Positions 2,765 through 36,618 of a stretch of DNA of 64,000 nucleotides are shown piece by piece (the first letter of the stretch is position 1; each line of letters opens with the position of its first letter). Origin of the DNA: Chloroflexota bacterium (GTDB lineage: Bacteria; Chloroflexota; UBA11872; VXNJ01); NCBI GenBank assembly GCA_965261345.1, contig OZ253449.1:1088001-1152000 (forward strand), in the 5' to 3' direction. The translations under genes and the position numbers were made by a program. The notes below the pieces were generated by a model. The model made no database searches, had not been told where the DNA came from, and saw only the letters and a list, made by a program, of their open reading frames with translations.

Positions 2765-3634
2765 TCAGCCGGATTGCGGGAAGTCGCGCCACGCCGTCAA
2801 CAGGAACCCAAACCCCAGCAGCACCAGCGCATAGACCGAGAGCAAACCAATCGCCTGCGGTCGGGTAGGTCCGGAATAACCAGCGGAGAAATCACCGTCA
2901 TCGGCAATCCCGGCAAAGACCTCCATTAGAGTGCCTTGTCCGTAGGCGGTCGGCTCGAGTCGGTGCGGTAGGTAGTCGGGCAGGGCGTCCCAGAACCCGT
3001 CCCCGACGGCGGCGGCGATCTCGGTGATAAATGGCACGAAAAGGAAGAACACGAACGGTATCGCCATCCCGGCGGCAGCCGAGCGGGTGAGCACCGCGGT
3101 GGAGAAAGCGACAAATCCGTAAAAGAGCAGGATCCCGATCGAGGCCGCGAAGCGGTCGGCCAGATCGACTAGGAAGCCGCGCGGCGGCGAGATCGATATC
3201 GTGTCGAAGATGTAGTCGCCGGCCAGCATGAAAATCCCGGAGAGGACCATCGTCGCGGTCACCGCCATCACGACCGAGCCAACCAGCGCCAGGAGCTTGG
3301 CCAGCAACACCTCGTGCCGGGCCGGCCCGCGCGCAAACAGCTGGCGGATCGTACCCCAACTAAATTCAGATCCGACCGCAAAAGCGGCGAAGATGACCGC
3401 CAAGTAGGAGCCGAACTGGACATTTAGCGCCAGCACAACCAGAAACCCCTGCGGGAAGCCGATCAGCGACCCTAGGGTCTGGGTCAGCCCGACGTCGTCA
3501 TCCAGCTGGATTTGCGATACCAGCTTGAAAAGCACGATCGTGGCCGGACCGATCAGGAGCAACAGGGCAAGCAGCACCCAGGACATCCGGCGGCCCAGGA
3601 TCTTTTGGAATTCGGCCGCCACGAGGCCGCTCAC
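2765..3634 (-). CDS. ABC-2 type exporter permease
   Basis: Multiple TM helices, AEFQK start, GSEFSWGTIRQLFARGPAR..VLLAK motif; overlaps ATPase stop. Confidence 0.85.
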   Translation of the reverse strand: MSGLVAAEFQKILGRRMSWVLLALLLLIGPATIVLFKLVSQIQLDDDVGLTQTLGSLIGFPQGFLVVLALNVQFGSYLAVIFAAFAVGSEFSWGTIRQLFARGPARHEVLLAKLLALVGSVVMAVTATMVLSGIFMLAGDYIFDTISISPPRGFLVDLADRFAASIGILLFYGFVAFSTAVLTRSAAAGMAIPFVFFLFVPFITEIAAAVGDGFWDALPDYLPHRLEPTAYGQGTLMEVFAGIADDGDFSAGYSGPTRPQAIGLLSVYALVLLGFGFLLTAWRDFPQSG

Positions 3635-4596
3635 GCTTCTCCCCGATCCTTAGTCTGGTCGAGGAAGAACGTCTCCAGATCGACTCCGGCCGAGGCGATT
3701 CCACTCACTCGCACGCCGGCTTCGACCAGGGCCGCGTTGACTTTACCCGCGTCTAGCTGATCTACATGAACGACCAGTTCGTTATTTAGCTCACGCGAAC
3801 TCGACCACCCGTTTTCGCCCAGCACGGCGATCGCGGCGGCGGGGTCGTCCACGCTAAAGCGCACCCCGCGCCCGCTGGTTAGCAGGTCTGACACGCGTCC
3901 CTGCACGACGGTTTTGCCAGATACCAGAATGCCGACTCGATCACAGGTTTGCTCTACTTCGGCCAACAGGTGCGAGGAGAGGATCACGGTGGCCCGGGAG
4001 TTCTGGGCGACGCTGCGGATGAGGTTGCGAAACTCGTGGGCGCCGGCCGGGTCCAAACCGGCGGTCGGCTCGTCGAGGACCAGCAATTCCGGATCGACCA
4101 TCAGCGCGTTGGCCAAACCAAGGCGTTGGCGCATGCCGGTCGAGTAGGTCTTGAATTTGGAATCGGCGCGGTCGAGTAAGCGGACCGCATCGAGCACCTC
4201 ATCGATCCGGCGACGCTCGATCGAGCCCCAGTAACGGCCCATTACTTCAAGATTCTTGCGCCCCGAAAGATAGGGGTAGAAAAGCGGCGCCTCGATCACC
4301 GCGCCAACGCGGCGCAGCAACTCCGGGCGACCTTGCTTGATGTCCTGGCCAAACAGTTCGATCCCACCAGATTGCGGCTTGATCAGGCCCAGGAGCACGC
4401 CCAGAAACGTCGTCTTGCCGGCCCCGTTGGGTCCCAGCAACCCGTACACGCAGCCGCGCGGCACGTCCAACTCCATTCCCGCGAGAGCCTGCACCCTGCC
4501 GTAGCGCTTGCTCAGCCCACGCGCCCGAATGGCCAGTTGATTCCCACCATCGTTTCGATTGACGACGGTCGGCGCTGAATCTTGGAGGTTCTGCAT
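3631..4596 (-). CDS. ABC transporter ATP-binding protein
   Basis: Walker A GPNGAGKTT, signature YSTGMRQR, LVLDEPTAGLDP, SSHLL; exact start uncertain. Confidence 0.9.
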   Translation of the reverse strand: MQNLQDSAPTVVNRNDGGNQLAIRARGLSKRYGRVQALAGMELDVPRGCVYGLLGPNGAGKTTFLGVLLGLIKPQSGGIELFGQDIKQGRPELLRRVGAVIEAPLFYPYLSGRKNLEVMGRYWGSIERRRIDEVLDAVRLLDRADSKFKTYSTGMRQRLGLANALMVDPELLVLDEPTAGLDPAGAHEFRNLIRSVAQNSRATVILSSHLLAEVEQTCDRVGILVSGKTVVQGRVSDLLTSGRGVRFSVDDPAAAIAVLGENGWSSSRELNNELVVHVDQLDAGKVNAALVEAGVRVSGIASAGVDLETFFLDQTKDRGEA

Positions 4597-4768
4597 ATGG
4601 CATCGCCATTCTCGCACGCAATACCCGCGCCGATGGGGTGGGGGTTGCTCCCGGTGGGTTATCCGAACCGCAATTTTGGGGTCCGATTGGGCCGCCCGCG
4701 GGGCGCCTTTGGCAAAATTGGAATGAACGCCTCCGCAGCGGGCGCGGCCAGCGCCAGGACCAAGGTTC

Positions 4769-6256
4769 GTGCGCACCCAGCTAACGATCGACCGACACAA
4801 CCAAATCGCCCGGGTCCAGCCCAAGCTCTATAGCCATTTCATCGAACACCTGGGCAATTGCACCTATCCCGGGATCTGGGTAGGGCGGCAGTCGCCAATC
4901 GCCGGCCTCGATGGTCTGCGCCGGTATACGGTCGAAAAGCTGCGCGGGGTCAGCCGGGGGACCGTCTACCGCTGGCCCGGCGGCTGTTTTGCCGACCATT
5001 ACCACTGGCGCGACGGCATCGGTGACCCGGCCGAGCGCCCGGTTACCCGCAATATCTGGTGGGGTGGACCGGAAACCAATCAATTCGGAACCCACGAATT
5101 CATGCGTTTTGCCCAGGAGCTGGAGGCCGACACCTATGTGTGCGGAAATATCGGCTCGGGAACACCTTCCGAAATGATGGATTGGCTCGAATACTGCAAC
5201 GCCGCCGAAGGCGAACACAGCCTGGCCCGGCAGCGGGCGGCCAACGGGCATCCCGCTCCATTCGGGGCCAAGTGGTGGGGAGTGGGCAACGAGAACTGGG
5301 GTTGCGGAGGGACCCTGCGGGCCGAAGAATACGCCGCCGCCTTCCGCCGCTACGCCAACTACCTGGGGAAAATCCGCCAGGGGGCCGAGCTGGTGGCGGT
5401 CGGGCACACGCCGGAGTGGAACCGACGGTTTCTAAGCGGGCTGCGCGGCGAGCGGTCTTTTGCCAATCTGGACCACCTCTCGCTGCATCGTTACCTCTTC
5501 AACGGCGGACCCGATGTGGGCTTTAGCGACGAGGACTATTACGCCTTGATGTCCGAGCTGCAGGTGGTTGAAGACGACCTTATCCGAGCCGATGGAATTC
5601 TGGCCCACCACGAGGATCCCGGCAAGCCGATCGGGATCGTATTTGATGAGTGGGGCGTATGGTGCCGCTCGGTGGCGCGCCCCGAAAATAGAGTTGAGCA
5701 GATAAACACCGTGCGCGAGGCGATTTGCGGGGCGGTAATGCTCGACTACTTTACGAACTATTCGCACCGGGTCGTAATGAGCAACGTTGCCCAGACTGTA
5801 AACGTGCTCCAATGCCTGGTGAAGGTCGACGGCCACGCCAACTGGACAACTCCCAACCTGGACATCTTCGAGTTCTACCGCTCGCACGTGGGCAACGATG
5901 CGGTCGCGGTTGCCGACGACGGCCCGTCGCTCTTCGCCTCCGGCGACGCCGGCCGGCCGGTCCGGCAGATCAGCGCCTCGGCCTCGATCGCCCCCGACGG
6001 ATCATCGGGCAGTCTCTGCCTAACCAACCTGCACCTGACCGAATCGATTCGGATCCGCGCCCGGGTGGTCGAATCCGGAGTTGTATCGTCCAGCGCTCTG
6101 GTTCTGAGCTCGGGCGACCCAGGTCACCACAACAGTGCTAACGATCCCGACCGGGTGCGATCGCAGATTCATCCCTCCCGGGCAATCGACGGCCAGCTGG
6201 AAATCGACGTCCCCCCGCACGCCACGGTGCAGGTGTGGCTTGAACTTGCCGCCTAG
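4769..6256 (+). CDS. Alpha-L-arabinofuranosidase, GH51
   Basis: FIEHLG, RWPGGCFADHYHWRDGIG, WGVGNENWGCGG (acid/base E), FDEWGVW (nucleophile E), AQTVNVLQ. Confidence 0.92.
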   Translation: MRTQLTIDRHNQIARVQPKLYSHFIEHLGNCTYPGIWVGRQSPIAGLDGLRRYTVEKLRGVSRGTVYRWPGGCFADHYHWRDGIGDPAERPVTRNIWWGGPETNQFGTHEFMRFAQELEADTYVCGNIGSGTPSEMMDWLEYCNAAEGEHSLARQRAANGHPAPFGAKWWGVGNENWGCGGTLRAEEYAAAFRRYANYLGKIRQGAELVAVGHTPEWNRRFLSGLRGERSFANLDHLSLHRYLFNGGPDVGFSDEDYYALMSELQVVEDDLIRADGILAHHEDPGKPIGIVFDEWGVWCRSVARPENRVEQINTVREAICGAVMLDYFTNYSHRVVMSNVAQTVNVLQCLVKVDGHANWTTPNLDIFEFYRSHVGNDAVAVADDGPSLFASGDAGRPVRQISASASIAPDGSSGSLCLTNLHLTESIRIRARVVESGVVSSSALVLSSGDPGHHNSANDPDRVRSQIHPSRAIDGQLEIDVPPHATVQVWLELAA

Positions 6257-6283
6257 AAGAGCCCCGATCCCAGGGACGACGCA

Positions 6284-7183
6284 GTGAAAATCCTGGTAAC
6301 CGGCGGCGGCGGTGACATCGGGTCGACGGTGGTGCGGCGGCTGATGGCCGACCACAACATCACGATTCTGGATCGGTCCCGATCGCCCGATCATCCCGAT
6401 CTGCCGCATTTGCTGGTGGACCTTGAAAACGCCAAAATGACCGCCTCGGTGGTGCGCGGGTTCGACCGGGTGGTGCATCTGGCCGCCATCCCCGACCCCT
6501 CATCGGGCCCGGCCGACGTCGTGTTTCGGGTAAATACGCTAACTACCTTCAATCTGCTCGAGGCTGTCCGCGCCAACCGGATTGCCCGGATCGTCTACGG
6601 CTGTTCGGAATCGGCTTCTGGATTTGGCATACACAACCGGCGCTTCAAGCCGCTGTATCTGCCAATCGACGAAAGCCATCCGTCGATCCCGCACGAAGCC
6701 TACGGATCGAGCAAATTGATCGGCGAGATCCTGTGTCGCCAATATGCCCACGCCTACGACATCGAAGCGATTTCCCTGCGCTACGCCTGGGCCTGGGGCG
6801 GGCGCCGCAACCGCGAAAGCTGGCTGAAGATCCTCTCCCGTGGGTCTGGCGGCGGGAGCAAGGACTGGTTGGGGGCCTGGATTGCCCATGACGATATCGC
6901 CCAGGCGGTTCAGCTGGCCTGCGAGTACCAGTTTCCGCTTCCGCTGCCGAGATTCGAGCGCTTTTACCTAACCGCCCGCGACAATTTCACCGACCTCGAT
7001 TCGCTGGCGCTGGCCAATCGCCATTGGCCGGTCGATCCACCCGAAATCGTTAAGCCCGAACTGTTTGCGCAGAATCCGCAGGCCTCGCTATTTGACCTGG
7101 ACAAGGCCAGGCGGCTGCTCGGTTACAGCCCGCAGGTCGCGATGGCCGATATGCGCTCCCGCTTCGGGGTAGAGCGGGCATGA
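6284..7183 (+). CDS. NAD-dependent epimerase/dehydratase
   Basis: ILVTGGGGDIG, VVHLAAIP, YGSSK (YxxxK). Confidence 0.88.
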   Translation: MKILVTGGGGDIGSTVVRRLMADHNITILDRSRSPDHPDLPHLLVDLENAKMTASVVRGFDRVVHLAAIPDPSSGPADVVFRVNTLTTFNLLEAVRANRIARIVYGCSESASGFGIHNRRFKPLYLPIDESHPSIPHEAYGSSKLIGEILCRQYAHAYDIEAISLRYAWAWGGRRNRESWLKILSRGSGGGSKDWLGAWIAHDDIAQAVQLACEYQFPLPLPRFERFYLTARDNFTDLDSLALANRHWPVDPPEIVKPELFAQNPQASLFDLDKARRLLGYSPQVAMADMRSRFGVERA

Positions 7184-8046
7184 GCGTGCGGATCGCTTTC
7201 CTGGCTGGACTGGGCTTTGCCTGCTGGCCGGTCGATCGGGTAGTTAAGACGCTCGGCGATTTGGGCTACGAGGGTATTGAATGGACGACCGCCCATTTTT
7301 CGCCGCGGGATCCGGCCAAGGCCCGCCGGGCGGTCGAGCTGACTCGCGGAGCGGGCCTTGAGGTTTCGCGAATCATGGCCCACGAGGATTTCGTCTGCCT
7401 AGACGATGCCGAACGCGAGCGTCGGATCGATGCGGTGATCGGTTCAGTTCAGCTCGCCGGCGAATTGGACGTTGCCACGGTCGGCTCGATGACCGGCCCG
7501 GCCCCCTGGGATCGCGGGGCTCCAAGGGTGGGCGTTGACATTGCCGAGGGCGAGGCCTGGGAAATGGCGCTGGACGCCCACCGGCGGATCGCCCGGGTCG
7601 CCGAACGAAGCGGGGTCACCATTTCGTCGGAGGGTGTGTTCGGAATGCTGGCCCACGATTTCTACTCGCACCGCTACCTGCTCGAACAGGTTGATTCGCC
7701 CGCGCTGGCGGTTAACTTCGACCCGTCGCACGGAATCTTAAGCGGCAATCTTGACATTGCCTGGATGATCGAACGGTGGGCGGGCAATATCGTTCACTGC
7801 CATCTAAAAGATGCGGTCGGGATTTCGCAGCGGGTTGGCGAATTCGTTTTTCCGCTTCTGGGCGAGGGTCGAGTTGACTGGACGGGCTTCTTCCAGGCCC
7901 TGGAGAAGATCGGATACCAGGGATTCGCCTCGGTCGAATTTGAAAGCTGGGACTATCTGCGTCAGGTACTTGGCAACGACCCGGCGCGCGCGGCGGCCAT
8001 CAGCATCCGCCAGGTAAGGGCGCTGCGCGAACAGGCCCGCGCCTAA
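7180..8046 (+). CDS. Sugar phosphate isomerase/epimerase (xylose isomerase-like TIM barrel)
   Basis: GYEGIE, NFDPSH, HCHLKD, LGEGRVDW, GYQGFASVEFE; ATGA overlap with upstream gene. Confidence 0.85.
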   Translation: MSVRIAFLAGLGFACWPVDRVVKTLGDLGYEGIEWTTAHFSPRDPAKARRAVELTRGAGLEVSRIMAHEDFVCLDDAERERRIDAVIGSVQLAGELDVATVGSMTGPAPWDRGAPRVGVDIAEGEAWEMALDAHRRIARVAERSGVTISSEGVFGMLAHDFYSHRYLLEQVDSPALAVNFDPSHGILSGNLDIAWMIERWAGNIVHCHLKDAVGISQRVGEFVFPLLGEGRVDWTGFFQALEKIGYQGFASVEFESWDYLRQVLGNDPARAAAISIRQVRALREQARA

Positions 8047-8097
8047 ACGGACCTTTCCCGGACCGGACAAGCCCAGTGGGCAACCCCGGCACGACCC

Positions 8098-8970
8098 CTA
8101 GGTCGGCACGATTGCCAGGCGCGGTTCGGCAAACCGCGGGTGGTGGCCGGCAACTACCGCCTGCTGTTCGCGCCCATTAAGGCGCCGGAACCGCTCGGCG
8201 GCAGAAATGAGGTCTGGCAGCAGCGAGACCTCGCCGGTACCCGGCGCGGTGTGCACCCGCTGGGAAAAAAGCCAGTTGGCGGCATCATCGATTTCGCCGC
8301 TCTCGCGCAGCGGGTCATACCAGGTCGTACAGTCCTTTTCAGCCGATCCCCAGCCGCCGCGGACAAGAATCTTTATGCACTGGATGCCCACATCGTGCTC
8401 GTTGCAGTAGTCGATCAGCGCCTGGGCGTCTTGGCGGTATTGGCGGTTGCCCCACAGACCCTTGGCCACCGGAAACATGACCGTGTCGAAGTCAAAGCGC
8501 TTCAATCCAGCCAATATCACCGACGGTACATACGGACCATGCCCGGTTATCCCCAGCCAGCGGGTGTGGCCCTGCTCACGCATTTCCCGGAGCGCGGCGA
8601 TGGCCCCGTCCGGATCAAGCGCGGCGTCCAACTCGGCCATCGTGGTGACCGCGTGCAGCTGGAACAGATCGAATCGATCGGTCTGCAGACGCTCAAAGGT
8701 CGTGCGGATGTCGGCCCAGGCCTCGGTCTTGGTGCGCCCCTGGGTCTTGCAACCCAAAAACACCTTCTCGCGGATCCGCGGTAGCCAGCTTCGCATTCGC
8801 TCCATTGCCTGGCCGTAGGCCGGGGCGATGTCGACGTGGTTGACACCCGCGTCAAGGTAGTGTCGCATTGCCGTATCGACCGCAGCCTGGTCGACGCGGC
8901 CGAATGCGGCGGCACCGACGGTGATGATTGTGCTCTGGTGGCCGGTCCGGCCAAGCCTTCGCTGTTCCAT
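8098..8970 (-). CDS. Aldo/keto reductase
   Basis: RRLGRTG, GVNHVDIAPAYG, FLGCKT, DLFQLHAV, LGITGH. Confidence 0.88.
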   Translation of the reverse strand: MEQRRLGRTGHQSTIITVGAAAFGRVDQAAVDTAMRHYLDAGVNHVDIAPAYGQAMERMRSWLPRIREKVFLGCKTQGRTKTEAWADIRTTFERLQTDRFDLFQLHAVTTMAELDAALDPDGAIAALREMREQGHTRWLGITGHGPYVPSVILAGLKRFDFDTVMFPVAKGLWGNRQYRQDAQALIDYCNEHDVGIQCIKILVRGGWGSAEKDCTTWYDPLRESGEIDDAANWLFSQRVHTAPGTGEVSLLPDLISAAERFRRLNGREQQAVVAGHHPRFAEPRLAIVPT

Positions 8971-8979
8971 GGTGGTTAC

Positions 8980-10425
8980 CTACCAAACTGAGAGCCGCTC
9001 GGGCAGGGGATCGACGGTAAAGGCCATCCGGTCGGCCAGGCGCTCATAGAGTTCAAGTTTTAGCGACCGATGTTCGGCGCTGTCCCAAAGATTGGTGTTT
9101 TCGCCCGGGTCGGTCCGCAGGTCGTATAGCTCCCCGCTCCCGGTCCCGTGCGCCACCACCAGTTTTGCATTGCGGGTGCGCACCATGGTTACCTGGGCCG
9201 ATGGCTCCATGTGCCAGGGCATGGCGTTGTAGTACTCCGAATAGATATCCTCGCGGTGCCGATGCCGATCCGCCTGGCCGGTCAATATCGGCCACAGGCT
9301 CTGGGCCTGCATTCCGGGCGGGCGCGCTTGTTCGCAGGCATCCAGGATGGTGGGGGCGATGTCGGAGAGTTCCACCAGCGCGCCGGACCGCACCCCGGCG
9401 CCGACCCGGCCCGGCCAGGAAACGATCAGCGGGACCCGCAGCGCGCACTCGTACATGTACGGACCCTTCCAGTAGATGCCGTGGTCGCCGAGCATCTCGC
9501 CGTGATCGGACATAAAAATCACGATCGTATTTTCGGCCTGACCACTCTCTTCCAGGTGGGCAAGCAGGCGTCCGACCTGGTCATCGACCAGGTCGCACAT
9601 CGCAAAGTAGGCAGCCTTTATCAGGCGGTGATCGTAATCGGACATTTCCGGGTAGACGTGGGCCTTCGCGGTGGCGTAGGCGCCCTCGTGATCGATTCGC
9701 TGGAAGTGCGGCTTGTTGGCCAATTCGCCATCCACGAAATTGGGCAGCGGTAGGTCGTTTAGTCGGTCCAAGTAACGCTCCAGGTATTCGCGTGGAGGAT
9801 CGAACGCGTGATGCGGGTCGAAGATGTTTACCGAATAGAGCCAGGGGGCTTCAAACCCCGCCCGGGCATTGATAAAGTCCATGGCCTTATTAACGCACCA
9901 AGTGGTCTGGTGCCACGGGGCGTCCATCGCCACGTTCACGTGCGGGTTCCCCTGGTAGGGTTCGCTCTGGTAGGAGAGGCCGTTCTGTTCGAGCCAGTTG
10001 ATGTATTGATTGTTGGGCCAATTGCGCCCGGGATGGTGTGACCAATCAAAGACCGCGTACCCGTCGTCAATGCGGCGCTCGCCAACCGGAGCCGCTTCCT
10101 CGTTGCAGGCCGAGATGTGCAATTTGCCGGAGAGCCCGCAAAAATATCCGGCATCGGCAAGCTGCTTGGTGATCAACAGCTCATCGGCCGGAATGTTGGC
10201 TCCGTTTTGTCGTCCGCGGCAGGTCCGCGGATAACGCCCGGTCAAAAAACTGGACCGCGAAGGGGTGCAGACTGAACTCTGCGAATAGCACCAGTCAAAG
10301 GTGGTGCCCGATTCGGCCAAGCGGTCGATATTCGGGGTTTTGACCCAATCGTTGCCGTAGACGCCAAGGGTGTCCCAGCGCTGTTGGTCAGTACAGATCC
10401 AGAGGATGTTGGGGGGTTGGGACAT
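8980..10425 (-). CDS. Sulfatase (Cys-type, S1 family)
   Basis: PNILWICTDQQR, CTPSR formylglycine motif, GKLH, FMSDHGEMLGDHG, ELYDLRTDPGE. Confidence 0.92.
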   Translation of the reverse strand: MSQPPNILWICTDQQRWDTLGVYGNDWVKTPNIDRLAESGTTFDWCYSQSSVCTPSRSSFLTGRYPRTCRGRQNGANIPADELLITKQLADAGYFCGLSGKLHISACNEEAAPVGERRIDDGYAVFDWSHHPGRNWPNNQYINWLEQNGLSYQSEPYQGNPHVNVAMDAPWHQTTWCVNKAMDFINARAGFEAPWLYSVNIFDPHHAFDPPREYLERYLDRLNDLPLPNFVDGELANKPHFQRIDHEGAYATAKAHVYPEMSDYDHRLIKAAYFAMCDLVDDQVGRLLAHLEESGQAENTIVIFMSDHGEMLGDHGIYWKGPYMYECALRVPLIVSWPGRVGAGVRSGALVELSDIAPTILDACEQARPPGMQAQSLWPILTGQADRHRHREDIYSEYYNAMPWHMEPSAQVTMVRTRNAKLVVAHGTGSGELYDLRTDPGENTNLWDSAEHRSLKLELYERLADRMAFTVDPLPERLSVW

Positions 10426-10624
10426 TGGAACCTAATTAACTCCAGCAGCAACCAAAGTGCCCCTGCATTTTTGCCCGAACGCTCATTCGAAGCAGCCGTC
10501 AAACCGACCGGATACCGATTCGTCGATAGCGTTGCCGCGTGTGACGCGACGAATAAACGCCTCTCCCGAGGGCAGCATCTATTACATTTTTTACTGAAGG
10601 CATTTAAAAACTAGGGGCTGGACG

Positions 10625-11512
10625 ATGGACGATACGAAACCGACTGTTGCGTTCGTGGGGGTGGGGCGAATGGGCTCCAATATGGCACTTCGCCTAAACG
10701 ACTGCGGTTACCAGATCGCCAGTGTGTTCGATGCCAACCTGCACATGGCCATGGTGTTGGCAAACAACATCGGCTGCCAAGTCGCCGAGAGTCTGGCGGC
10801 GGTGAGCGCGAGCGCCGCGGTGATTTTCACCGTGGTCAACGACGACGCCTCGATGCGGGATATCTTCCTGTCCGGAAATGACAATCTGCTGGTCGGAGCG
10901 GCCGGAAAGCTTTTTATCAACTGTGCCACCCTTTCGCCCGCGATCCACCGCGAAGTCGATGCCGCGGCCGCCGCGGCCGGCGCCGAATCGCTCGAGGCCT
11001 GCATGGCATCGAGCATCCCGCAGGCCCGCGCCGGGACGCTTTACCTGATGACCGCCGGCTCCGATTCGGCCCAGCAGCGGGCTGCCGGCCCGCTCGCCGA
11101 CCTGGGCATGGTACGAACGATCGGTTCGGTCGGGCAGGCCGCCCAGGTCAAGGCCCTAGTCAACATGGTCATGAACATCAACACCGCCGGCCTAGCCGAG
11201 GGCCTGGGCCTGGCTGACGCGCTGGGGCTCGATCTGGACACGGTCATGGAGGTTTTCTCACAGACCGGGGCCAATTCGCGGGTTCTGGAGACCGACGGCG
11301 CCGATATGCGCGATCGCGACCATGAGGTCTATTTCTCGGCAGCCCACGCGGCCAAGGACTCATCGATCGCCATCGACCTGGCCGAGGAGGCCGGGCTGCG
11401 GCTGCCGCTAGCCAACGCCACCCGGGACCAGTTCCTAAGGTTGATCGCGGACGGCAAGGCCGACCTCGACAAGAGCGCGGTCGCCGAGCTGACCTTCAAG
11501 GGCCGCAGCTAG
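10625..11512 (+). CDS. NAD(P)-dependent beta-hydroxyacid dehydrogenase (3-hydroxyisobutyrate dehydrogenase family)
   Basis: FVGVGRMGSNMA Rossmann motif, catalytic K in QVKALVNMV, HAAKD. Confidence 0.85.
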   Translation: MDDTKPTVAFVGVGRMGSNMALRLNDCGYQIASVFDANLHMAMVLANNIGCQVAESLAAVSASAAVIFTVVNDDASMRDIFLSGNDNLLVGAAGKLFINCATLSPAIHREVDAAAAAAGAESLEACMASSIPQARAGTLYLMTAGSDSAQQRAAGPLADLGMVRTIGSVGQAAQVKALVNMVMNINTAGLAEGLGLADALGLDLDTVMEVFSQTGANSRVLETDGADMRDRDHEVYFSAAHAAKDSSIAIDLAEEAGLRLPLANATRDQFLRLIADGKADLDKSAVAELTFKGRS

Positions 11513-26429: not shown

Positions 26430-27425
26430 TTAAACCGGGTGCTGGTCGGACCGCTTGAGCCAGTTGACGCTGGTGGCCTTGGTCCCGCGGACCAGGCGGC
26501 GCACCTCGGCCCGGCGGGCAGTCGGCAGATGCTGTTTTTCCAGCCAGGCCCGCGAAGCTACGTACTTGGTCATTGCCACCTCGATCGGCAGGCGCGAATC
26601 CGGAAATTGCGCATAGAAATCAAGTAGTTTCTCACGCTGGATTGTCAGGGTCGACAGCGCCGTTATCGCCTGCACGGTGGCCGGGCGGGCGGTTTGCCCC
26701 AGCAGGGCCAGCTCGCCAAAATGGTCGCTTTCGTCCAGCTCGTGATATCGCGTCCGTGGTCGGCCCTGGCGCCGGTCATAGCTGACCACATCGAGGAGCG
26801 CCCGACCACGCCGGATATAGTGCAGGTCGACGCCATAGTCGCCCTGCCGGAATACGAACCGGCCGGCTGGAAAGTGGCCCCAGGCAAATCTTTGTGCCAG
26901 CGACTCAAGCTCGTTGGCCGACAGATGCGAGAAATAGTCCAGTTTGCGCAGATAGGCAGTCAACACGGTTCGTAGGTACGACTCGTTTAGCGCCCGGACA
27001 AGCTCGGATTCCTGTCCGAGCGGGCCCACCAAGCGCGACAGATCCAGCACCAGGATTTCACTGCCCGTTTCGGTGACCGCCAGGATCGGATCCGGATGTC
27101 CGATCGCACTTTCGAAATTTCCAAATACCGCAAGCTCTCCGACCACCCGGCCGCGCCGCTCGCGCTCATCGGGGTGCGAGGGCGTCGAAATCCGCACCTT
27201 GCCGGTCGCCACCACGTAGAGACTGTGATCGCCGATCCCCGGTTCGGTGATGACGGTGTTGGCCGGCGAGACCAGCAAGGTGCCGCGGCGCGCCAGTTGA
27301 CGCCGCAAGTTCGGCGGCAGCGAATCGAATATCTCGATCTCCGCCAGCGCCTCTTCAAACCTTCCGGTGCGAATCTTCCAACCCAGTGCCCGGACGGCGT
27401 AGGAGAGCGAGTCAATCAGCCCCAA
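26430..27425 (-). CDS. Tandem cyclic nucleotide-binding domain protein
   Basis: Two CNB domains: LYVVATGKVRI...VFG (degenerate cassette) and VFRQGDYG.DLHYIRRG...HFGELALL...RPATV (canonical); GAGGAG SD right after the pafA-like stop. Confidence 0.85.
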   Translation of the reverse strand: MGLIDSLSYAVRALGWKIRTGRFEEALAEIEIFDSLPPNLRRQLARRGTLLVSPANTVITEPGIGDHSLYVVATGKVRISTPSHPDERERRGRVVGELAVFGNFESAIGHPDPILAVTETGSEILVLDLSRLVGPLGQESELVRALNESYLRTVLTAYLRKLDYFSHLSANELESLAQRFAWGHFPAGRFVFRQGDYGVDLHYIRRGRALLDVVSYDRRQGRPRTRYHELDESDHFGELALLGQTARPATVQAITALSTLTIQREKLLDFYAQFPDSRLPIEVAMTKYVASRAWLEKQHLPTARRAEVRRLVRGTKATSVNWLKRSDQHPV

Positions 27426-27442
27426 AAACTCACACTCCTCTT

Positions 27443-28999
27443 CTAAGGCTCTTCTATGGCGCGGTCGGTCGGTTCAACGTCCTCGTCTGGTCCTCCCGCC
27501 GGCGGCAGCGCCCGCAGGAAATCGCCGATCTCGTCAGCGAATTCGCTTGACTGGTCATCGTAGCACTGGAACGGGTCGGCAATGCTTAGAACCTTCCCGT
27601 TTACGGCGATCGATTCCCAGTCCAGCACATACGGCACCAGATCCCAGACCCCGGCTGCGGCCACCTCCCGCCAACCGTCAATGTAGGAATAGACGCGGTA
27701 GAGGCGACCTTCCCAAAGTGCGTAATCTGATAGTCCGTGGCGCAATTCGGACCAATCGACGTGTTCGGCCGCGTCAGCCTTAGCCAGCGCCCGCAGGACC
27801 TTGGCGCGGGCATGGGCGCGGGTGTCCAATGGCGGCTCGGAAACCGCCCGCTGGGCCACCGGGGTCGGCAACAGGAAGCGCATCCGGGAATGCTCGCGCA
27901 GCGCCGTAAATACGCTCTGGCGGGGGTCGATGATGTGGTATGCCTGATCCACCTTGAGCAGATCACGGTCGCTCCACCCGAGGGAGCTGCCGTCGGCAAA
28001 TTCGCTAAGCACCTTCTTTTTGGAAACCCAGTCCAAATGGCCATCTAGCGTCATTGGATCAGATTCGAGCTGATCTAGGACCTGTTCCCAGTTCTCAAGG
28101 GTCCATGCGGTATCGGCATCTCTGCCCGCAAACCGCCGGGTGGCCTCGTTGAGGTATTGGCGCTGCACGTCAACCGCCGCAATCGATCCGTAGCGCTCCT
28201 CCGAGACAGTCCAGTCGCCCACCGTGTTGGCGGCAATTTGGCGCAGATCGCGCACCGGCGCTTCAAGCTGGAGCGATTGCGACCAACCGGCGTCGAGCAA
28301 CTGGGCCACTAGGGCGGTGGTGCCGATCTTGAGGGCAGTGGCAAATTCAGACCGATTGCAGTCGCCGATGATCACGTGTAGGCGCGGCCGGGAACCCAAC
28401 GGCTCATCGCGCAAGTTGATGATCGGGCGGCCGCCGTAGCGCACCCGCCGTGAAACGCCCACATCGGCGAATCCGGCGCGCTGGCTCAGTTGGTATTGCC
28501 CGGGCCGGCCGCGCCCGGAAAAACTGATCAGGCCGGCACCGGCAAAGATCTGGCGGGTCACCAGAAAGGGCATTAGCCCGGAAACTACCGTCTCGTCGTC
28601 GGGACGGCGGCGCATCGAATAGCTCTCATGGTACCCGAAGGTGTTGCCGCAGTAGTCGGTGTTGCTCTTGACAAAGTAGATCGGGTCCTGCCGCTGCAGG
28701 CGTGCAAGTGTTTCCAGCAGAATCGGTTCGATCGCCAGCTCATGGGCCACCAGAGCGGCCAGGCTGCGGCATTCGGCAGTGGCGTATTCAAGGTGCCCTG
28801 AGTCGATCAGCAGGCGCCCGCCGTTGAACAGGAACCCGCCGTTGGCCGGGGTTTCGCCCCACTCGCGCGGCGCCGGGTCGACGACCCCGTAGCGGTATCC
28901 GTCAAAGATGTCGGTCTTGACCAATGCCGCCGCCAGCTCCGGTTCCACCGCACCGGTTACTCCGAATTCGATCTCGGTGCCGAACAGGGCATCTTGCAT
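27443..28999 (-). CDS. pafA: Pup/UBact-protein ligase, PafA family
   Basis: FGTEIEFG, FLFNGGRLLIDSGHLEYATAEC, NTDYCGNTFGYHESY, PFLVTRQIFAGAG, LSQRA, RPIINLRDEP, RLHVIIGDCN, LKIGTT, PPLDTRA, DPF; no Dop loop. Confidence 0.85.
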   Translation of the reverse strand: MQDALFGTEIEFGVTGAVEPELAAALVKTDIFDGYRYGVVDPAPREWGETPANGGFLFNGGRLLIDSGHLEYATAECRSLAALVAHELAIEPILLETLARLQRQDPIYFVKSNTDYCGNTFGYHESYSMRRRPDDETVVSGLMPFLVTRQIFAGAGLISFSGRGRPGQYQLSQRAGFADVGVSRRVRYGGRPIINLRDEPLGSRPRLHVIIGDCNRSEFATALKIGTTALVAQLLDAGWSQSLQLEAPVRDLRQIAANTVGDWTVSEERYGSIAAVDVQRQYLNEATRRFAGRDADTAWTLENWEQVLDQLESDPMTLDGHLDWVSKKKVLSEFADGSSLGWSDRDLLKVDQAYHIIDPRQSVFTALREHSRMRFLLPTPVAQRAVSEPPLDTRAHARAKVLRALAKADAAEHVDWSELRHGLSDYALWEGRLYRVYSYIDGWREVAAAGVWDLVPYVLDWESIAVNGKVLSIADPFQCYDDQSSEFADEIGDFLRALPPAGGPDEDVEPTDRAIEEP

Positions 29000-29005
29000 G
29001 CGGGA

Positions 29006-29197
29006 CTACTGCCCTCCCGGTTGCGGCGTGGGGTTGGGAATCTCACGAATGATTCGCCGCACCCTCTCGCCTAGCTCCTCTTCCTCGCTCTTGTCCGGCG
29101 AATGGGCGGGGTCCTCGGTCTCGGTTTCCGGTTTACTCGGAGCTTCAGTTTCCAACCCGATGCGGACGCTCAACATGGCGCGTTGCTCTGCTTTCAA
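29006..29197 (-). CDS. Pup/UBact-like prokaryotic ubiquitin-like modifier ending in GGQ
   Basis: 63 aa from TTG 29197 (GGAGGA SD at 29207-29212); acidic, Pro-rich, disorder-like composition; C-terminal PGGQ; lies between dop-like and pafA-like genes. Confidence 0.8.
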   Translation of the reverse strand: MKAEQRAMLSVRIGLETEAPSKPETETEDPAHSPDKSEEEELGERVRRIIREIPNPTPQPGGQ

Positions 29198-29255
29198 TTT
29201 GCCCCATCCTCCAACGCCGGACGGATACCATGGCACCCGTCATTAGATAACATTT

Positions 29256-30800
29256 TCAACCAACGACAGCTTCGGACCCCATAAGCGCCCCGACTAGTTC
29301 GTCCACGTCGGCGGCCGCCTCAACCTTTTCGGCCAGGGCTGCAATAGTTCCCGAATGGACCTGCGAGAGGTCCAGGTGAAACCGCCGGCCGGAAATTTCA
29401 AGCGTCGCCGAATCCCATTCCATCTCCTTGACGTGGCCGCCAAAGTGCGAGATAAGCCTTCCGCGCAGGCGCGCCCGCGTGTCGCCGGGCGGTTGTTTGA
29501 GGTGGGCCCGGGCTTCTGTGGGGTCAAGCAGGGTGCCGATTCGACCCTCGGCCACCAGCTGGTCATAGATCGAATACCTTGGGTCAAGGTAGTGGTAGGC
29601 GACGTCTAAGCGCCGCAGTGTTTCGGCCGGCAGGCCTGCCTGGCCGGGTGCGACTTGCTCAATCAGCTGCAATTTGGCGCACCAGTCGAGGAAATCACCG
29701 GCACCCTCCGGATCGCGACGTAGCAGATCGAGCAGGCGTCGCCACTCGGCGGCAATCCAGTCGCGCTCCGGTCCGCGCAGATCGGCTTCCTCAATCGCCT
29801 GCAGGTAGATTTCCAGCACGTCGAGCATCCCCAACTGGCCGCGCGAGGTCGGCACCATGGCGCAAAGCGCGGGGTCGCGTGAAAACGTCCGGATCGCCTG
29901 CAGCGGGTCGTTGAGGGCGATTCGGAAGTCGTGCCCCTGTTCGACTAGGTCCAGCACCAGCGAGGTCATTCCCACCTTGAGCGCCGTCTGTAGCTGGCTG
30001 CGGTTGGCATCGCCGCAGATCACGTGCATCCGGCGATAGGCCCGGCGGTCGGAATGCGGCTCGTCGCGGGTATTGAAAATCGGACGCTTTGCAGTCGTAT
30101 TTATCCCGGTTATCTGTTCAAAAAAATCGGCCCGCTGGGAAATCTGAAAAGTTACCGCCGGGTCGGCGAAGCGGCCCTCGCTGCCGGCCTTACCGGCACC
30201 GGTCAGGGCGATTCGCGAGACCAGGAAGGGCACAGTCTGGGCGATTAAGAAATCCATCCCGACCGACCGGTTCAAAAGGTAGTTTTCATGGGTTCCGTAT
30301 GAACGGCCGTGATAGTCGGTGTTGTTCTTGACCAATAGCACCTCGTCGGTCGAGCGGGCGTTGCGCTGGCGCTGACAGGCAAGTAGGAGTTGTTCGCCGG
30401 CGGCGTCCTGGCGGGCGACCTCGAATGCCGAACGGGTGGCATCGGTGCAGTACTCGGGATGGTTGTGGTCGTTGTAAAAGCGCGCGCCGTTGGGCAGGAT
30501 CGTATCGGCGATCAGCTCGGCCCGGGAGAGCCTGGCACTCTCGCCCGCCACCGCGGCCAGATCGTGCGGGTCGCGGGCCAGGCGGTGACGCCGGCCGAAG
30601 AAATCCAGGCGGCCGTCCTCGCCCGAATAATCCCAGCCGCGATGAATCGGACGCAGGCAGAGCGAGCGGACCAAGGTCGAGGCCAGGAACCCAAAATCCA
30701 CTGGCTCGGCAAAACCCTGGCAGATCATCCCGTATTCGGTCTCGATTCCCATTGGGCGCAGCCCGCCGAGTTGACCGTTTGGCAGCTGGAAGGCGGTCAC
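29256..30800 (-). CDS. dop: Pup deamidase/depupylase, Dop family
   Basis: MGIETEYG, Dop-loop-like WDYSGED, LPNGARFYNDHNHPEY, KNNTDYHGRSYGTHENY, ISQRADFFE, TTAKRPIFNTRDEPH, RRMHVICGDAN, PPGDTRA. Confidence 0.88.
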   Translation of the reverse strand: MTAFQLPNGQLGGLRPMGIETEYGMICQGFAEPVDFGFLASTLVRSLCLRPIHRGWDYSGEDGRLDFFGRRHRLARDPHDLAAVAGESARLSRAELIADTILPNGARFYNDHNHPEYCTDATRSAFEVARQDAAGEQLLLACQRQRNARSTDEVLLVKNNTDYHGRSYGTHENYLLNRSVGMDFLIAQTVPFLVSRIALTGAGKAGSEGRFADPAVTFQISQRADFFEQITGINTTAKRPIFNTRDEPHSDRRAYRRMHVICGDANRSQLQTALKVGMTSLVLDLVEQGHDFRIALNDPLQAIRTFSRDPALCAMVPTSRGQLGMLDVLEIYLQAIEEADLRGPERDWIAAEWRRLLDLLRRDPEGAGDFLDWCAKLQLIEQVAPGQAGLPAETLRRLDVAYHYLDPRYSIYDQLVAEGRIGTLLDPTEARAHLKQPPGDTRARLRGRLISHFGGHVKEMEWDSATLEISGRRFHLDLSQVHSGTIAALAEKVEAAADVDELVGALMGSEAVVG

Positions 30801-31549
30801 CCGGCGACCTCGGCCAGCTCAAGCAGATGCGCCCGCGGGCGACAGCGCAGTCGCAGCGGAATTCCGGACCAGCCGAGGCCAATGCTTACGTGGCAGAGCC
30901 GGCCACCCAGGACCATCACCCCATCGGCGGCCGGCAATCGATTGCGGGTGTTGGTCGGGGTCGGCAACATCGGGATGTTGAGTTGGCCCCCGTGGGTATG
31001 GCCCGAAAGGGCCAGGTCGCAGCGGTAATCGCCCACATCAAATACACCGTCCGGTGAATGGGTCAACAGAAGGGTGCCGAGGCCCTGGTCTGAACCGGCG
31101 TAGGCACTTGCGATATCGTGGCGTGCGCGATGCGGGTCATCGGTGCCGATCAGGTTCAGCCTCCGGTCGCCAATCCGTACTTGGACCGACTCGTTTACCA
31201 GCAACCGTACCCCGCTGGCGGCCAAGACGTTGACAACTTGCCCCGGGTCCAGCAGCAGATCGTGGTTGCCGAGGCAGGCGAATGCCCCCAGGCGCGGCCT
31301 GATTCGACCAAGCGCCCGGGCGGTTTCGGCCAGGGCCGGGCCATTTTCAGCGATGTCGCCGGTAACGCACAGGAGATCGCAGGCGACCGGGGCCAAGGAC
31401 CGCAGAGCGCGCGACGGGAAATCGTCGGCGCTACGGGCATGAATGTCTGAGACATGCAAGATCGAAATCCCGGCCAACCCCGAACCATTGGGGAGCGGCA
31501 GGAGGATTTTCTCCAGGATATTCCCGGCCCCCGGACTTGTTTGGTTCAT
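30797..31549 (-). CDS. Calcineurin-like metallophosphoesterase (YkuE/YaeI-like)
   Basis: SDIH, TGD, LGNHD, LTHSPD, LSGHTHGGQ; 4-bp overlap with the dop-like start. Confidence 0.88.
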   Translation of the reverse strand: MNQTSPGAGNILEKILLPLPNGSGLAGISILHVSDIHARSADDFPSRALRSLAPVACDLLCVTGDIAENGPALAETARALGRIRPRLGAFACLGNHDLLLDPGQVVNVLAASGVRLLVNESVQVRIGDRRLNLIGTDDPHRARHDIASAYAGSDQGLGTLLLTHSPDGVFDVGDYRCDLALSGHTHGGQLNIPMLPTPTNTRNRLPAADGVMVLGGRLCHVSIGLGWSGIPLRLRCRPRAHLLELAEVAG

Positions 31550-34563: not shown

Positions 34564-36618
34564 TCACTGGGCCGTGACCGCGTGCGCTTCCACCGTAAAT
34601 CGCCCGTCGTGGAAGTCCACTGCATAGCAACGGTCATCGTCGGGACCGGCGGCAATTAGCGCGGAAGCTAGTGCTTGCTCGATATCGTGCTCGATGATCG
34701 CCCGCAGCGGACGAGCCCCTTCCCCGGCCGCCAATGCGCGCCGAACCAACTCTCCGAGCACCACGCCGGCAATCTCAACCTCTTGGCCAAGGGCGGCGAG
34801 TCGTTTGGCCATCGCCGCGAGCAGGCGGCGGGCAATTTCGCGGAAATCTTCCTCACCAAGGTCGGCCAACGGAACGATCCGGTCCAGCCGATTGACAAAT
34901 TCGGGCGATAGCCGCCGACGCATATCGTTCGCCAAACGGACCGGGTCGGATGCCGGCGAGCGACCGCCGGCGGGATTGGCGAACCCGATCGTCCCGCCCG
35001 AGCGGCTGCCCACGGTTGAAGTTAGCAGGATGATCGCCTGGGCAAAGCTGGCGCTGCGCCCGCCGGCATCGGTCAATTTGCCCGAGTCCATGATCTGCAG
35101 CAGCAACGAAAGCACCTGCGGATGGGCCTTTTCAATGTCGTCGAAGAGAACCACCGAATGCGGATCGCGTCGGATGGCCTCGGTCAACCGACCCGCTTCC
35201 TGATAACCCACGTATCCCGGCGGGGCGCCGATCAGGCGCGAGGTCGAGAACGGCTCCGATAGCTCGGACATGTCGATGCGGATCAGTTTGTCACGGCTGC
35301 CGGAAACAAATTCGGCCAGCAGCCTGGCCATTTCGCTCTTGCCCACCCCCGACGGCCCGAGCAGCAGCAACGACCCGATCGGCCGCTCGGGCGCCTTGAG
35401 CCCGGCCGCAGCCCGCTTGAGCGAATTGGCCACCTGTCGGATGGCGTTGCCCTGGCCGATTAAGCTTTGGCCCAACTTGGCTTCAAGTTGCAGATAGCGG
35501 CCCGACTCGGCCTCCGTCAGGTCAGCCATGTTAATACCGGTTGCACTGGCGACGACCTCGGCTATGGCCTTGTCATCGATCGGGGTCGCGCTTTGCTGCA
35601 ATTGTTTGTACCAACCGCGGCGGGCCACGATCAGTTTTTCGCGCAACCGCGACTCGGCCGCATATTCCTCCAGGAGAAGTTCCTGGTTGTCGCCCTCCAC
35701 GGCTAGCTCGGAACGCCGCTTGCGGAAAGTTGCCACCTGGCGGCGCATTGCCTTGATTTCCTCCGGGGGCACCAGGCGGTCGGATTTACGCCGGGCCAGC
35801 GCCTCGTCGATCAAGTCGATGGCCTTGTCGGGAAGTCGGCGGTCGGTAATGTACCGGTCCGAGAGCCGGATGGCGGCGGTGATCGCCGAATCGGCAATCG
35901 GCAGGCCATGAAATTCTTCATAGGTCTCGCGCAGTCCCTCCAGCACCGCCCGCGTCTGGTCCAGGTCGGGCTCTTCCACCGCTACCGTTTGGAAGCGGCG
36001 GTGGAGGGTCGCGTCGCGCGAAAAGTAACGCCGGTACTCGTTCCAGGTGGTGGCCCCGATAACTCGGATCTTGCCGCGGGCCAGGGCCGGTTTAAGCAAC
36101 CCGGCTGCGTCCAACGTGCCACTGGCCCCTCCGGCCCCCAGAATCGTGTGGATCTCATCGATAAATAGGACCACATCACGCGCTTCGACCACCTCTTCTA
36201 GGAGTTCCTTGACCCGTTGTTCAAATTCACCGCGATACCTGGCGCCAGCCACCATCGCCGCCAGATCCAGGGTTATGAGCCGGGTTTCGAGCAACTGCAC
36301 CGGCACCGAACCACTTACGATCTTTTGCGCCAGTCCCTCAACGATCGCGGTCTTGCCGACCCCGGCGTCGCCCACCAACAGCGGGTTGTTCTTGTTGCGC
36401 CGCAGCAGGATTTCGGCCACCCGCATCGTCTCGGCCGCGCGCCCAACCACTCGATCAAGCCCGCCGGCGCGAGCCCGTCGGGTCAGATCGGTCCCATACT
36501 GGGCCAGCCGGGAGATGCGTTCGCGACCTTTTCCGCGGCGTTGTTGCCCGGTTCCCGAGCCGCCCGGAGAGCGCGAGCGCATCTGCCAGGGCCCGCGTCG
36601 AGTTTGGAGGGAGCCCAA
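34564..36618 (-). CDS. ClpC-like AAA+ ATPase lacking the Clp N-terminal domain
   Basis: KNNPLLVGDAGVGKT, GARYRGEFE, FIDEIH, LPDKAIDLIDEA, coiled M-domain, GPSGVGKS, GAPPGYVGY, IGF loop, GARPLR. Confidence 0.88.
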   Translation of the reverse strand: MGSLQTRRGPWQMRSRSPGGSGTGQQRRGKGRERISRLAQYGTDLTRRARAGGLDRVVGRAAETMRVAEILLRRNKNNPLLVGDAGVGKTAIVEGLAQKIVSGSVPVQLLETRLITLDLAAMVAGARYRGEFEQRVKELLEEVVEARDVVLFIDEIHTILGAGGASGTLDAAGLLKPALARGKIRVIGATTWNEYRRYFSRDATLHRRFQTVAVEEPDLDQTRAVLEGLRETYEEFHGLPIADSAITAAIRLSDRYITDRRLPDKAIDLIDEALARRKSDRLVPPEEIKAMRRQVATFRKRRSELAVEGDNQELLLEEYAAESRLREKLIVARRGWYKQLQQSATPIDDKAIAEVVASATGINMADLTEAESGRYLQLEAKLGQSLIGQGNAIRQVANSLKRAAAGLKAPERPIGSLLLLGPSGVGKSEMARLLAEFVSGSRDKLIRIDMSELSEPFSTSRLIGAPPGYVGYQEAGRLTEAIRRDPHSVVLFDDIEKAHPQVLSLLLQIMDSGKLTDAGGRSASFAQAIILLTSTVGSRSGGTIGFANPAGGRSPASDPVRLANDMRRRLSPEFVNRLDRIVPLADLGEEDFREIARRLLAAMAKRLAALGQEVEIAGVVLGELVRRALAAGEGARPLRAIIEHDIEQALASALIAAGPDDDRCYAVDFHDGRFTVEAHAVTAQ

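Follow-up and report, generated by a model that had tools for sequence, protein, structure and literature searches.

A probable Pup-type protein tag of a new sequence family, encoded between Dop-type and PafA-type genes in a class of Chloroflexota

Pup is a protein tag of about 60 residues that ends in Gly-Gly-Gln or Gly-Gly-Glu, is encoded just after dop in a locus adjoining both dop and pafA, and is coupled to the Mpa/ARC ATPase and usually to the 20S proteasome. In Corynebacterium, pupylation takes place without a proteasome. A further family of such tags, UBact, was reportedly described by Lehmann et al. in 2017; it ends in RYRQR[ST]G[EQ], with one glycine (34 aligned members), and its loci hold the genes for Mpa, PrcB, and PrcA. 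According to the accessible part of PMC7947786, pupylation is a conserved trait of Actinobacteria and Nitrospirae that occurs sporadically in a few further phyla, and Chloroflexi are absent from the phyla listed there for Dop and PafA. When Pup binds PafA or Dop, two helices are formed within its last ~27 residues, as described in the accessible part of PMC8599861. Here we report on a locus of a Chloroflexota bacterium (assembly GCA_965261345.1), located in a stretch of 64,000 nucleotides of contig OZ253449.1 that was analyzed as a whole and is called the window below. In it, a small protein ending in Gly-Gly-Gln (hereafter the tag) is encoded between homologues of the Dop and PafA genes. We consider it probable that the tag represents a new sequence family of Pup-type protein tag, one that is independent of the proteasome and of Mpa.

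The initial annotation of the window had reported a 63-residue open reading frame (ORF) preceded by a strong Shine-Dalgarno signal, and both were found (Table 1). The frame closes Gly-Gly-Gln-TAG, with the stop codon at 29008-29006 on the minus strand, and GGAGG or GGAAGG boxes precede the starts of related loci too. An alternative, longer frame of 76 residues opens with a GTG at 29236; the 13 residues that it adds are unconserved among relatives of the same genus, which have a start codon at the position equivalent to the TTG of the window. Being short, started by TTG, and overlapped by ORFs on the opposite strand, the tag frame might be suspected of having arisen by chance in the GC-rich intergenic DNA that separates the enzyme genes. 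This explanation is refuted by the pattern of variation in the last 23 codons across 37 sequences (the window and 36 genome loci). Specifically, all 37 DNA versions are distinct while encoding nearly one peptide, the variable sites are distributed 8/5/23 over codon positions 1/2/3, and change is exclusively synonymous in 17 of the 23 codons. Third-position variation together with a near-fixed peptide therefore indicates that selection acts on this frame and on this strand. The peptide is also kept while the flanking enzymes drop to 45-50% identity, and one tag copy is present in 58 of 61 genomes of a dense sample of the class, covering 5/6 families and 13/14 genera. The tag ORF is a genuine gene whose protein product is under strong selection, and a chance origin is so improbable that we give it practically no weight. 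An ORF of 112 residues with an ATG start spans the entire tag gene on the plus strand (28908-29246); because the codon-position pattern favours the tag frame, this overlapping ORF is the spurious one.

Relatives of the tag were retrieved by a word-seeded protein search (8 relatives), a scan of species-representative genomes (36 loci, every one labelled Chloroflexota), a profile search against 1.84 billion representatives (24 matches at E<=1e-3, among them 23 small relatives), and a metagenome scan (26 loci). The remaining profile match, a repeat protein of 700 residues, was rejected as a false positive. The scans were seeded with [VR]RRIIREIP and P[DG]PTPQPGG, so those motifs are conserved by construction, whereas the residue after Gly-Gly and the stop codon are not. 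Two alignments, A2 (38 rows) and the wider A5 (32 rows), divide the tag into five parts. A variable N-terminus (10-45 residues) leads into the conserved ETEAPxKP box, after which come a linker that is acidic and rich in Pro and Thr, an amphipathic helix of the pattern D/E-L-x-E-x-x-R/K-R-I-I-R-E-I, and an invariant tail P-[DNG]-P-T-P-Q-P-G-G-[QE] that is followed by the stop. L42, R47-I53, P54, and P56-G62 do not vary in A2, and the longer stretch RRIIREIP[DNG]PTPQPGG[QE] is nearly invariant in the family.

The Pup-type GG[QE] end that had been noticed in the window protein is retained in orthologous loci, where it stands directly before the stop in 36/36 genome loci, 26/26 metagenome loci, and 22/23 library representatives. 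The last residue is Gln in 24 and Glu in 12 of the genome loci, and Gln in 2 and Glu in 24 of the metagenome loci, with no other residue in either set; among the 23 representatives, 2 end in Gln, 20 in Glu, and 1 in another residue. Such a mixture matches what would be expected if Gln had first to be converted to Glu. The divergent representative (P0006, 80 residues) follows the family sequence through RRIIREIP and continues, after residue 55, with an unrelated end of 25 residues. This end most likely reflects an indel or frameshift in its assembly, as another locus (L005, 5995-6195) encodes the same N-terminal sequence with a normal tail. As the initial annotation had anticipated, standard annotation leaves the family unnamed: the named members carry the label 'hypothetical protein', and the nearest clusters in the Protein Atlas, which serve as a lead only, are Chloroflexota clusters labelled in the same way (scores 0.78-0.79).

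The genes on either side had been identified as dop and pafA, and Pup_ligase matches, structure alignments, and tree clades all agree that they are of Dop type and PafA type. The two motifs quoted from them, which had been taken to look more like those of non-actinobacterial (UBact-associated) enzymes, are also present, RFYNDH at residues 107-112 of the 514-residue protein and NGGFLFNGGRL at residues 53-63 of the 518-residue protein. In the window, the Dop-type gene ends 58 nucleotides before the tag, and the PafA-type gene starts 6 nucleotides past the tag stop. The Dop-type protein aligns over its full length to the Dop structures of Acidothermus (282 bits versus 168 for PafA), and the spacing between its GhExE and NGAR motifs is 81 residues, versus 47 in the PafA-type protein. 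An insertion before strand beta-2 that carries a conserved Trp, the Dop-loop, occurs in all Dop and is absent from all PafA according to the part of PMC8599861 that is accessible. In the residue numbering given in that same text, W56, R107, Y109, D111, and H112 of the Dop-type protein align to W47, R90, Y92, D94, and H95 of Acidothermus Dop; the last four are the R/Y/D/H residues of the NGARxYxDH motif. The PafA-type protein aligns from residue 1 to the PafA of a UBact locus within the same class (35% identity), and shares the motif D-x-G-(S)-H-x-EYATAEC with the PafA of C. glutamicum (4b0t, 4bjr), its own version being D-S-G-H-L-E-Y-A-T-A-E-C. Its D66 is aligned with the Asp that has been changed to Asn in structure 4BJR, which carries the D64N mutation named in the accessible portion of PMC8599861.

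Across loci, nothing but the order Dop-type, tag, PafA-type is constant. By tblastn, a PafA-type gene lies downstream of the tag in 36/36 genome loci and a Dop-type gene upstream in 35/36; in the remaining one (L019), the contig end cuts through the upstream gene and leaves a C-terminal piece of a Pup_ligase gene. According to a simple ORF finder, the PafA-type start lies 6-12 nucleotides past the tag stop in 32/36 loci, and in the others (L007, L019, L027, L030) the program chose a different PafA start or none. Among the metagenome loci, a Dop-type gene was found upstream in 24/26 and a PafA-type gene downstream in 24/26, with a flank missing from the locus in L052 and L054. On a further metagenome contig of 1216 nucleotides (L055), the ORF at 101-895 combines an unrelated N-terminal part with a Dop-like C-terminal stretch below the tblastn threshold, and only the first residues of the PafA-type gene are present downstream; the contig could be a chimera, or the locus could have been rearranged.

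Among 401 evenly sampled Chloroflexota genomes, 42 were matched by the tag profile, and all of these belong to three families of one class. Pup_ligase was found above cut-off in the same 42 genomes, exactly two copies in each, and additionally in one genome of a fourth family (G366), which has four Pup_ligase genes, a true UBact, and no tag of the PQPGG type. Three close kin of the carriers (G342, G080, and G214) have neither the tag nor the ligases. The tag-negative genomes of the denser 61-genome sample are G080, G214, and G366.

A maximum-likelihood tree with a midpoint root was built from 30 sequences (10 upstream and 10 downstream enzymes, the four of G366, and six database matches, with no actinobacterial sequences). 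Two clades, Dop and PafA, are each supported at 100/100; every upstream gene belongs to the former and every downstream gene to the latter, where the PafA of the G366 UBact locus is placed as well. Within both clades, the tag-locus enzymes are monophyletic, sit on long stems (0.74 and 0.86), and split into the same three subclades. This matching of subclades, together with monophyly in both enzyme clades, suggests that the operon was inherited as a unit, with both enzymes probably diverging along with the tag. Outside the tag-locus enzymes, the nearest relatives in databases are PafA2-family proteins of Armatimonadota.

The UBact locus of G366 (L043, G366:C2:58000-70000, about 3490-10680) has the order Mpa-like ATPase, Dop, UBact, PrcB, PrcA, PafA. 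The ATPase carries both proteasomal OB domains, and the small protein, which ends in RYRQRSGE, reaches 79.2 bits with PF20513 and 77.2 bits with NF033388, thereby serving as a positive control. Two different tag systems thus exist within one class of Chloroflexota. Two further Pup_ligase paralogues are located elsewhere in G366 (L044 and L045), and a scan there for small ORFs ending in G[EQ] gave nothing convincing.

In agreement with the earlier observation that the body of the protein resembles neither Pup nor UBact, the window tag matched none of the hidden Markov models PF05639, TIGR03687, PF20513, and NF033388 at E<=10, and none of 32 family members matched the Pup or UBact models at E<=1. 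The Pup model found no match in the whole window genome at E<=10, while the C. glutamicum control was positive. Against the PDB, the tag-family profile retrieved no Pup chain at E<=10; as a yardstick, neither did the UBact profile at the same threshold. Tags of this kind are too short and too divergent for profile tests to decide homology.

The tag might still be a regular orthologue of UBact (or Pup) that has diverged very far, in which case it would belong in that family and behave in the same way. Its gene takes the place after dop that the UBact gene has in G366, a genome from the same class, and its length class is the same. We aligned UBact from 34 of the 63 members found, spread over the range of E-values and leaving out near-duplicates and longer forms (A4). 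The best profile-profile match (hhalign) then set the Arg-rich amphipathic helix of the tag on that of UBact, EEELGERVRRI on TKELLRRMRRV, and in both proteins this helix ends 14 residues from the C-terminus. In the tree, which is without actinobacterial sequences, the enzymes of the tag locus branch beside UBact-locus and Armatimonadota-type enzymes, and those of the UBact locus are among the nearest outgroups. However, the helix match is a single local one of 11 columns with an E-value of 0.023, which rises to 0.22 with the wider tag alignment, and none of the 32 members matches PF20513 at E<=1, whereas the control UBact scores 79 bits. Furthermore, the near-invariant RYRQR[ST]G[EQ] ending is replaced by PTPQPGG[QE], the locus lacks Mpa, PrcB, and PrcA genes, and the enzyme stems are long. 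We therefore regard an ordinary UBact or Pup orthologue as unlikely. Common descent of the tag with a UBact- or Pup-like ancestor is nevertheless likely, though not demonstrated, because of the operon slot, the register of the helix, and the sister position of the enzymes. The proposal of a third modifier class is accordingly upheld in one respect, namely that the tag forms a third sequence family matched by no Pup or UBact model, and finds no support as an independent invention, since the helix weakly resembles that of UBact.

On the one hand, the tag system resembles pupylation in the length, ending, and genomic position of the tag, in the pairing of a Dop-type enzyme that has the Dop-loop with a PafA-type enzyme that has an aligned catalytic Asp, and in the predicted docking of the tag in the ligase groove with its C-terminus in the active site. 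On the other hand, a second helix is present in Pup where the tag has a P-x-P-x-P-x-P ladder (residues 54-60, P-N-P-T-P-Q-P), which cannot be helical and in which P54, P56, P58, and P60 are invariant. The docking was predicted from the PafA-type protein (alignment A3, 16 rows) and tag residues 28-63 (taken from A2). Three runs gave values of 0.88, 0.87, and 0.88 for the interaction prediction score from aligned errors (ipSAE), and the best of three controls gave 0.00. At that mark, 116 of 157 solved complexes are recovered versus 2 of 215 mismatched pairs, a calibration that is rough here as our own alignments were used. The runs share at least 94% of contacts, and the predicted local distance difference test (pLDDT) of the partner is at least 70. 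In the model, tag residues 39, 42-43, 45-47, and 49-50 contact ligase residues 330-372 in the pattern of one helix face, and the continuous stretch of tag residues 52-63 contacts ligase residues 11-21, 66-69, and 106-122, around the catalytic D66. This fits a tag that would lie on the ligase as one helix (39-53) followed by an extended tail (52-63), unlike the two helices of Pup, and as modelled the single helix with its proline ladder is a real departure from the Pup arrangement. The modelled ligase interface (residues 39-63) does not include the ETEAPxKP box. The model supports binding between tag and ligase but does not show it.

The window genome consists of one 2.39-Mb contig and is 95% complete. 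It has no match to PF00227, and so neither a 20S proteasome nor HslV, and no Mpa-type ATPase was found in it, as the best TIGR03689 match reached 144 bits versus a cut-off of 505 and the best PF16450 match (17.7 bits) was below cut-off. In the 61 class genomes, the Mpa-type OB domain PF17758 was detected only in G366, and PF00227 matches were detected in 10, of which only those of G366 sit between Pup-ligase genes. Where such a match and the tag are on one contig (G107, G152, G197, and G238), more than 1.6 Mb separates them. The window genome and nearly all sampled tag carriers have no 20S proteasome next to the locus and no Mpa/ARC-type ATPase, and for these reasons the tag is expected to act without the classical reader. 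Pup, by contrast, is coupled to such an ATPase. The nearest precedent is Corynebacterium, which has Pup ligase genes without PF00227 (the C. glutamicum control was positive for PF03136 and PF05639 and not for PF00227), but which has kept a canonical Pup and an Mpa/ARC-type ATPase (control positive for PF17758 and PF16450), neither of which is present in the window genome. In several tag carriers, a lone weak match of the PF00227 type (36-46 bits) lies distant from the tag locus, at G152:C1:1265122-1265565, G197:C1:481832-482275, G222:C10:85178-85651, G421:C1:901263-901739, and G415:C1:2090244-2090720.

Taken with the types of the two enzymes and the terminus, these observations lead us to propose the following cycle. 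The tag would be produced with a C-terminal Gln, or with Glu in many relatives, and the upstream Dop-type enzyme would deamidate Gln63 to Glu. The downstream PafA-type ligase would then bind the tag via its one amphipathic helix (residues ~39-53) while the rigid PxPxPxP-Gly-Gly tail is threaded into the active site, the proline ladder replacing the second ligase-bound helix of Pup. There the terminal Glu would be activated with ATP and joined to lysines of target proteins, from which the Dop-type enzyme could later remove it, making the mark reversible. The tag may thus serve in reversible regulation, or its effect may depend on a reader yet to be discovered, for which the ETEAPxKP box is a candidate docking site.

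Alternatively, the peptide might not be conjugated at all, and could be a regulator or pseudo-substrate of both enzymes, or a precursor peptide whose C-terminus is modified by enzymes of the carboxylate-amine ligase type. Neither Mpa nor a proteasome is present as a reader, such extreme conservation over the last 20 residues is also what a tight-binding ligand or the core of a precursor might show, and lysine conjugates of the tag are a prediction. Against this, a reversible tagging cycle is recognised by the pairing of Dop-type and PafA-type paralogues with a GG[QE] terminus, the alternation of Gln and Glu at this terminus agrees with a deamidation step before ligation, and the model places the terminal residues at the catalytic Asp of the ligase, as would be expected for activation. 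We consider a non-conjugated peptide improbable. Returning to a Pup-type tag, a fuller version of this reading holds that a self-contained system of reversible lysine tagging was cut from Mpa and the proteasome and inherited vertically through the whole class, that the second helix gave way to the proline ladder, and that ETEAPxKP recruits a novel reader or none, with tagging serving regulation instead of degradation. We offer this more specific scenario tentatively, as one that falls somewhat short of an even chance.

Several observations weigh against interpreting the tag as a proteasome-independent Pup-type modifier. Its sequence shows no significant relationship to Pup or UBact, and its role as a tag rests on context, terminus, and model. 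The PafA-Pup complex has already been solved (4BJR), so the high score may partly reflect memory of that likeness. Weak PF00227 matches occur elsewhere in 9 of the 59 class genomes of tag-carrying families, and some lineages might have a distant protease partner. The Dop-type protein scores 363 bits on TIGR03688, below the NCBI equivalog cut-off of 492, and the PafA-type protein scores 261 bits on TIGR03686 versus a cut-off of 551 and 5 bits higher (266) on the Dop model. Relatives of the latter score 277-282 bits on the PafA model versus 252-263 on the Dop model, and the genuine UBact-locus pair of G366 also misses both cut-offs (Dop 481, PafA 321). Finally, the PafA-type protein is without two alpha-loop threonines that are reported as conserved in both Dop and PafA in the accessible part of PMC7947786, as is the PafA of the G366 UBact locus.

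Table 1. Features of the tag locus in the window.
Feature	Coordinates	Strand	Description and evidence
Tag gene	29006..29197	minus	63 codons plus stop, TTG start; translation, family alignments A2 and A5, codon-position pattern
Shine-Dalgarno-like GGAGGA	29207..29212	minus	9 nucleotides upstream of the TTG start; read directly
N-terminal box E16-T-E-A-P-S-K-P23 (consensus ETEAPxKP)	29129..29152	minus	E16, A19, P20, and P23 invariant in 38 sequences
Ligase-binding half, residues 39-63	29009..29083	minus	Predicted helix E39-I53, then I-P-N-P-T-P-Q-P-G-G-Q ending at Gln63; modelled contacts
Dop-type deamidase/depupylase homologue, 514 residues	29256..30800	minus	PF03136, E 1.8e-124; GhExE at G18-E22, Dop-loop W56
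PafA-type ligase homologue, 518 residues	27443..28999	minus	PF03136, E 5.9e-102; GhExE at G7-E11, no Dop-loop, D66

Genes for a metallophosphoesterase, a phosphofructokinase, AccA/AccD, a cyclic nucleotide-binding protein, and an aldo-keto reductase near the locus are common to the closest relatives only. No conserved partner genes were found around distant loci, where the neighbours are unrelated metabolic and toxin-antitoxin genes. In the window, a calcineurin-like phosphoesterase of 250 residues (YaeI/LpxG-like, below cut-offs; 30797-31549, minus strand) shares 4 nucleotides with the beginning of the Dop-type gene. Its synteny is limited to the closest relatives (L003-L007), in three of which ~2.2 kb are inserted between the two genes. 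On the other side, a 331-residue protein with two cyclic-nucleotide-binding domains (26430-27425, minus strand) starts 17 nucleotides past the end of the PafA-type gene and is likewise found there only in the closest relatives. The unfoldase nearest to the locus is a double-AAA ATPase of the Clp/Hsp100 type (ClpB/ClpC-like, 684 residues; 34564-36618, minus strand) with the domains AAA, AAA_lid_9, AAA_2, and ClpB_D2-small; its first AAA domain begins at about residue 80, and it seems to have little N-terminal domain. It was considered as a part of the system and rejected, being syntenic only in the closest relatives.

No description of the tag family was found in the open-access literature searched, and the motif strings PTPQPGG and IREIPDP appear in no paper of that literature. 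No Pfam or NCBIfam model covers the family, and annotation pipelines under-count such tagging systems. PUP-IT is a proximity labelling method based on PafA; for labelling of this kind, a tag and ligase that bind each other in a different way could be used as a second pair free of cross-reaction. For the organisms themselves, the findings mean that a set of tag, ligase, and depupylase is near-universal in one class of Chloroflexota and that its tag is missed by every current model. As the known unfoldase and the known protease are both absent, this set would provide a natural test of tagging chemistry without a proteasome.

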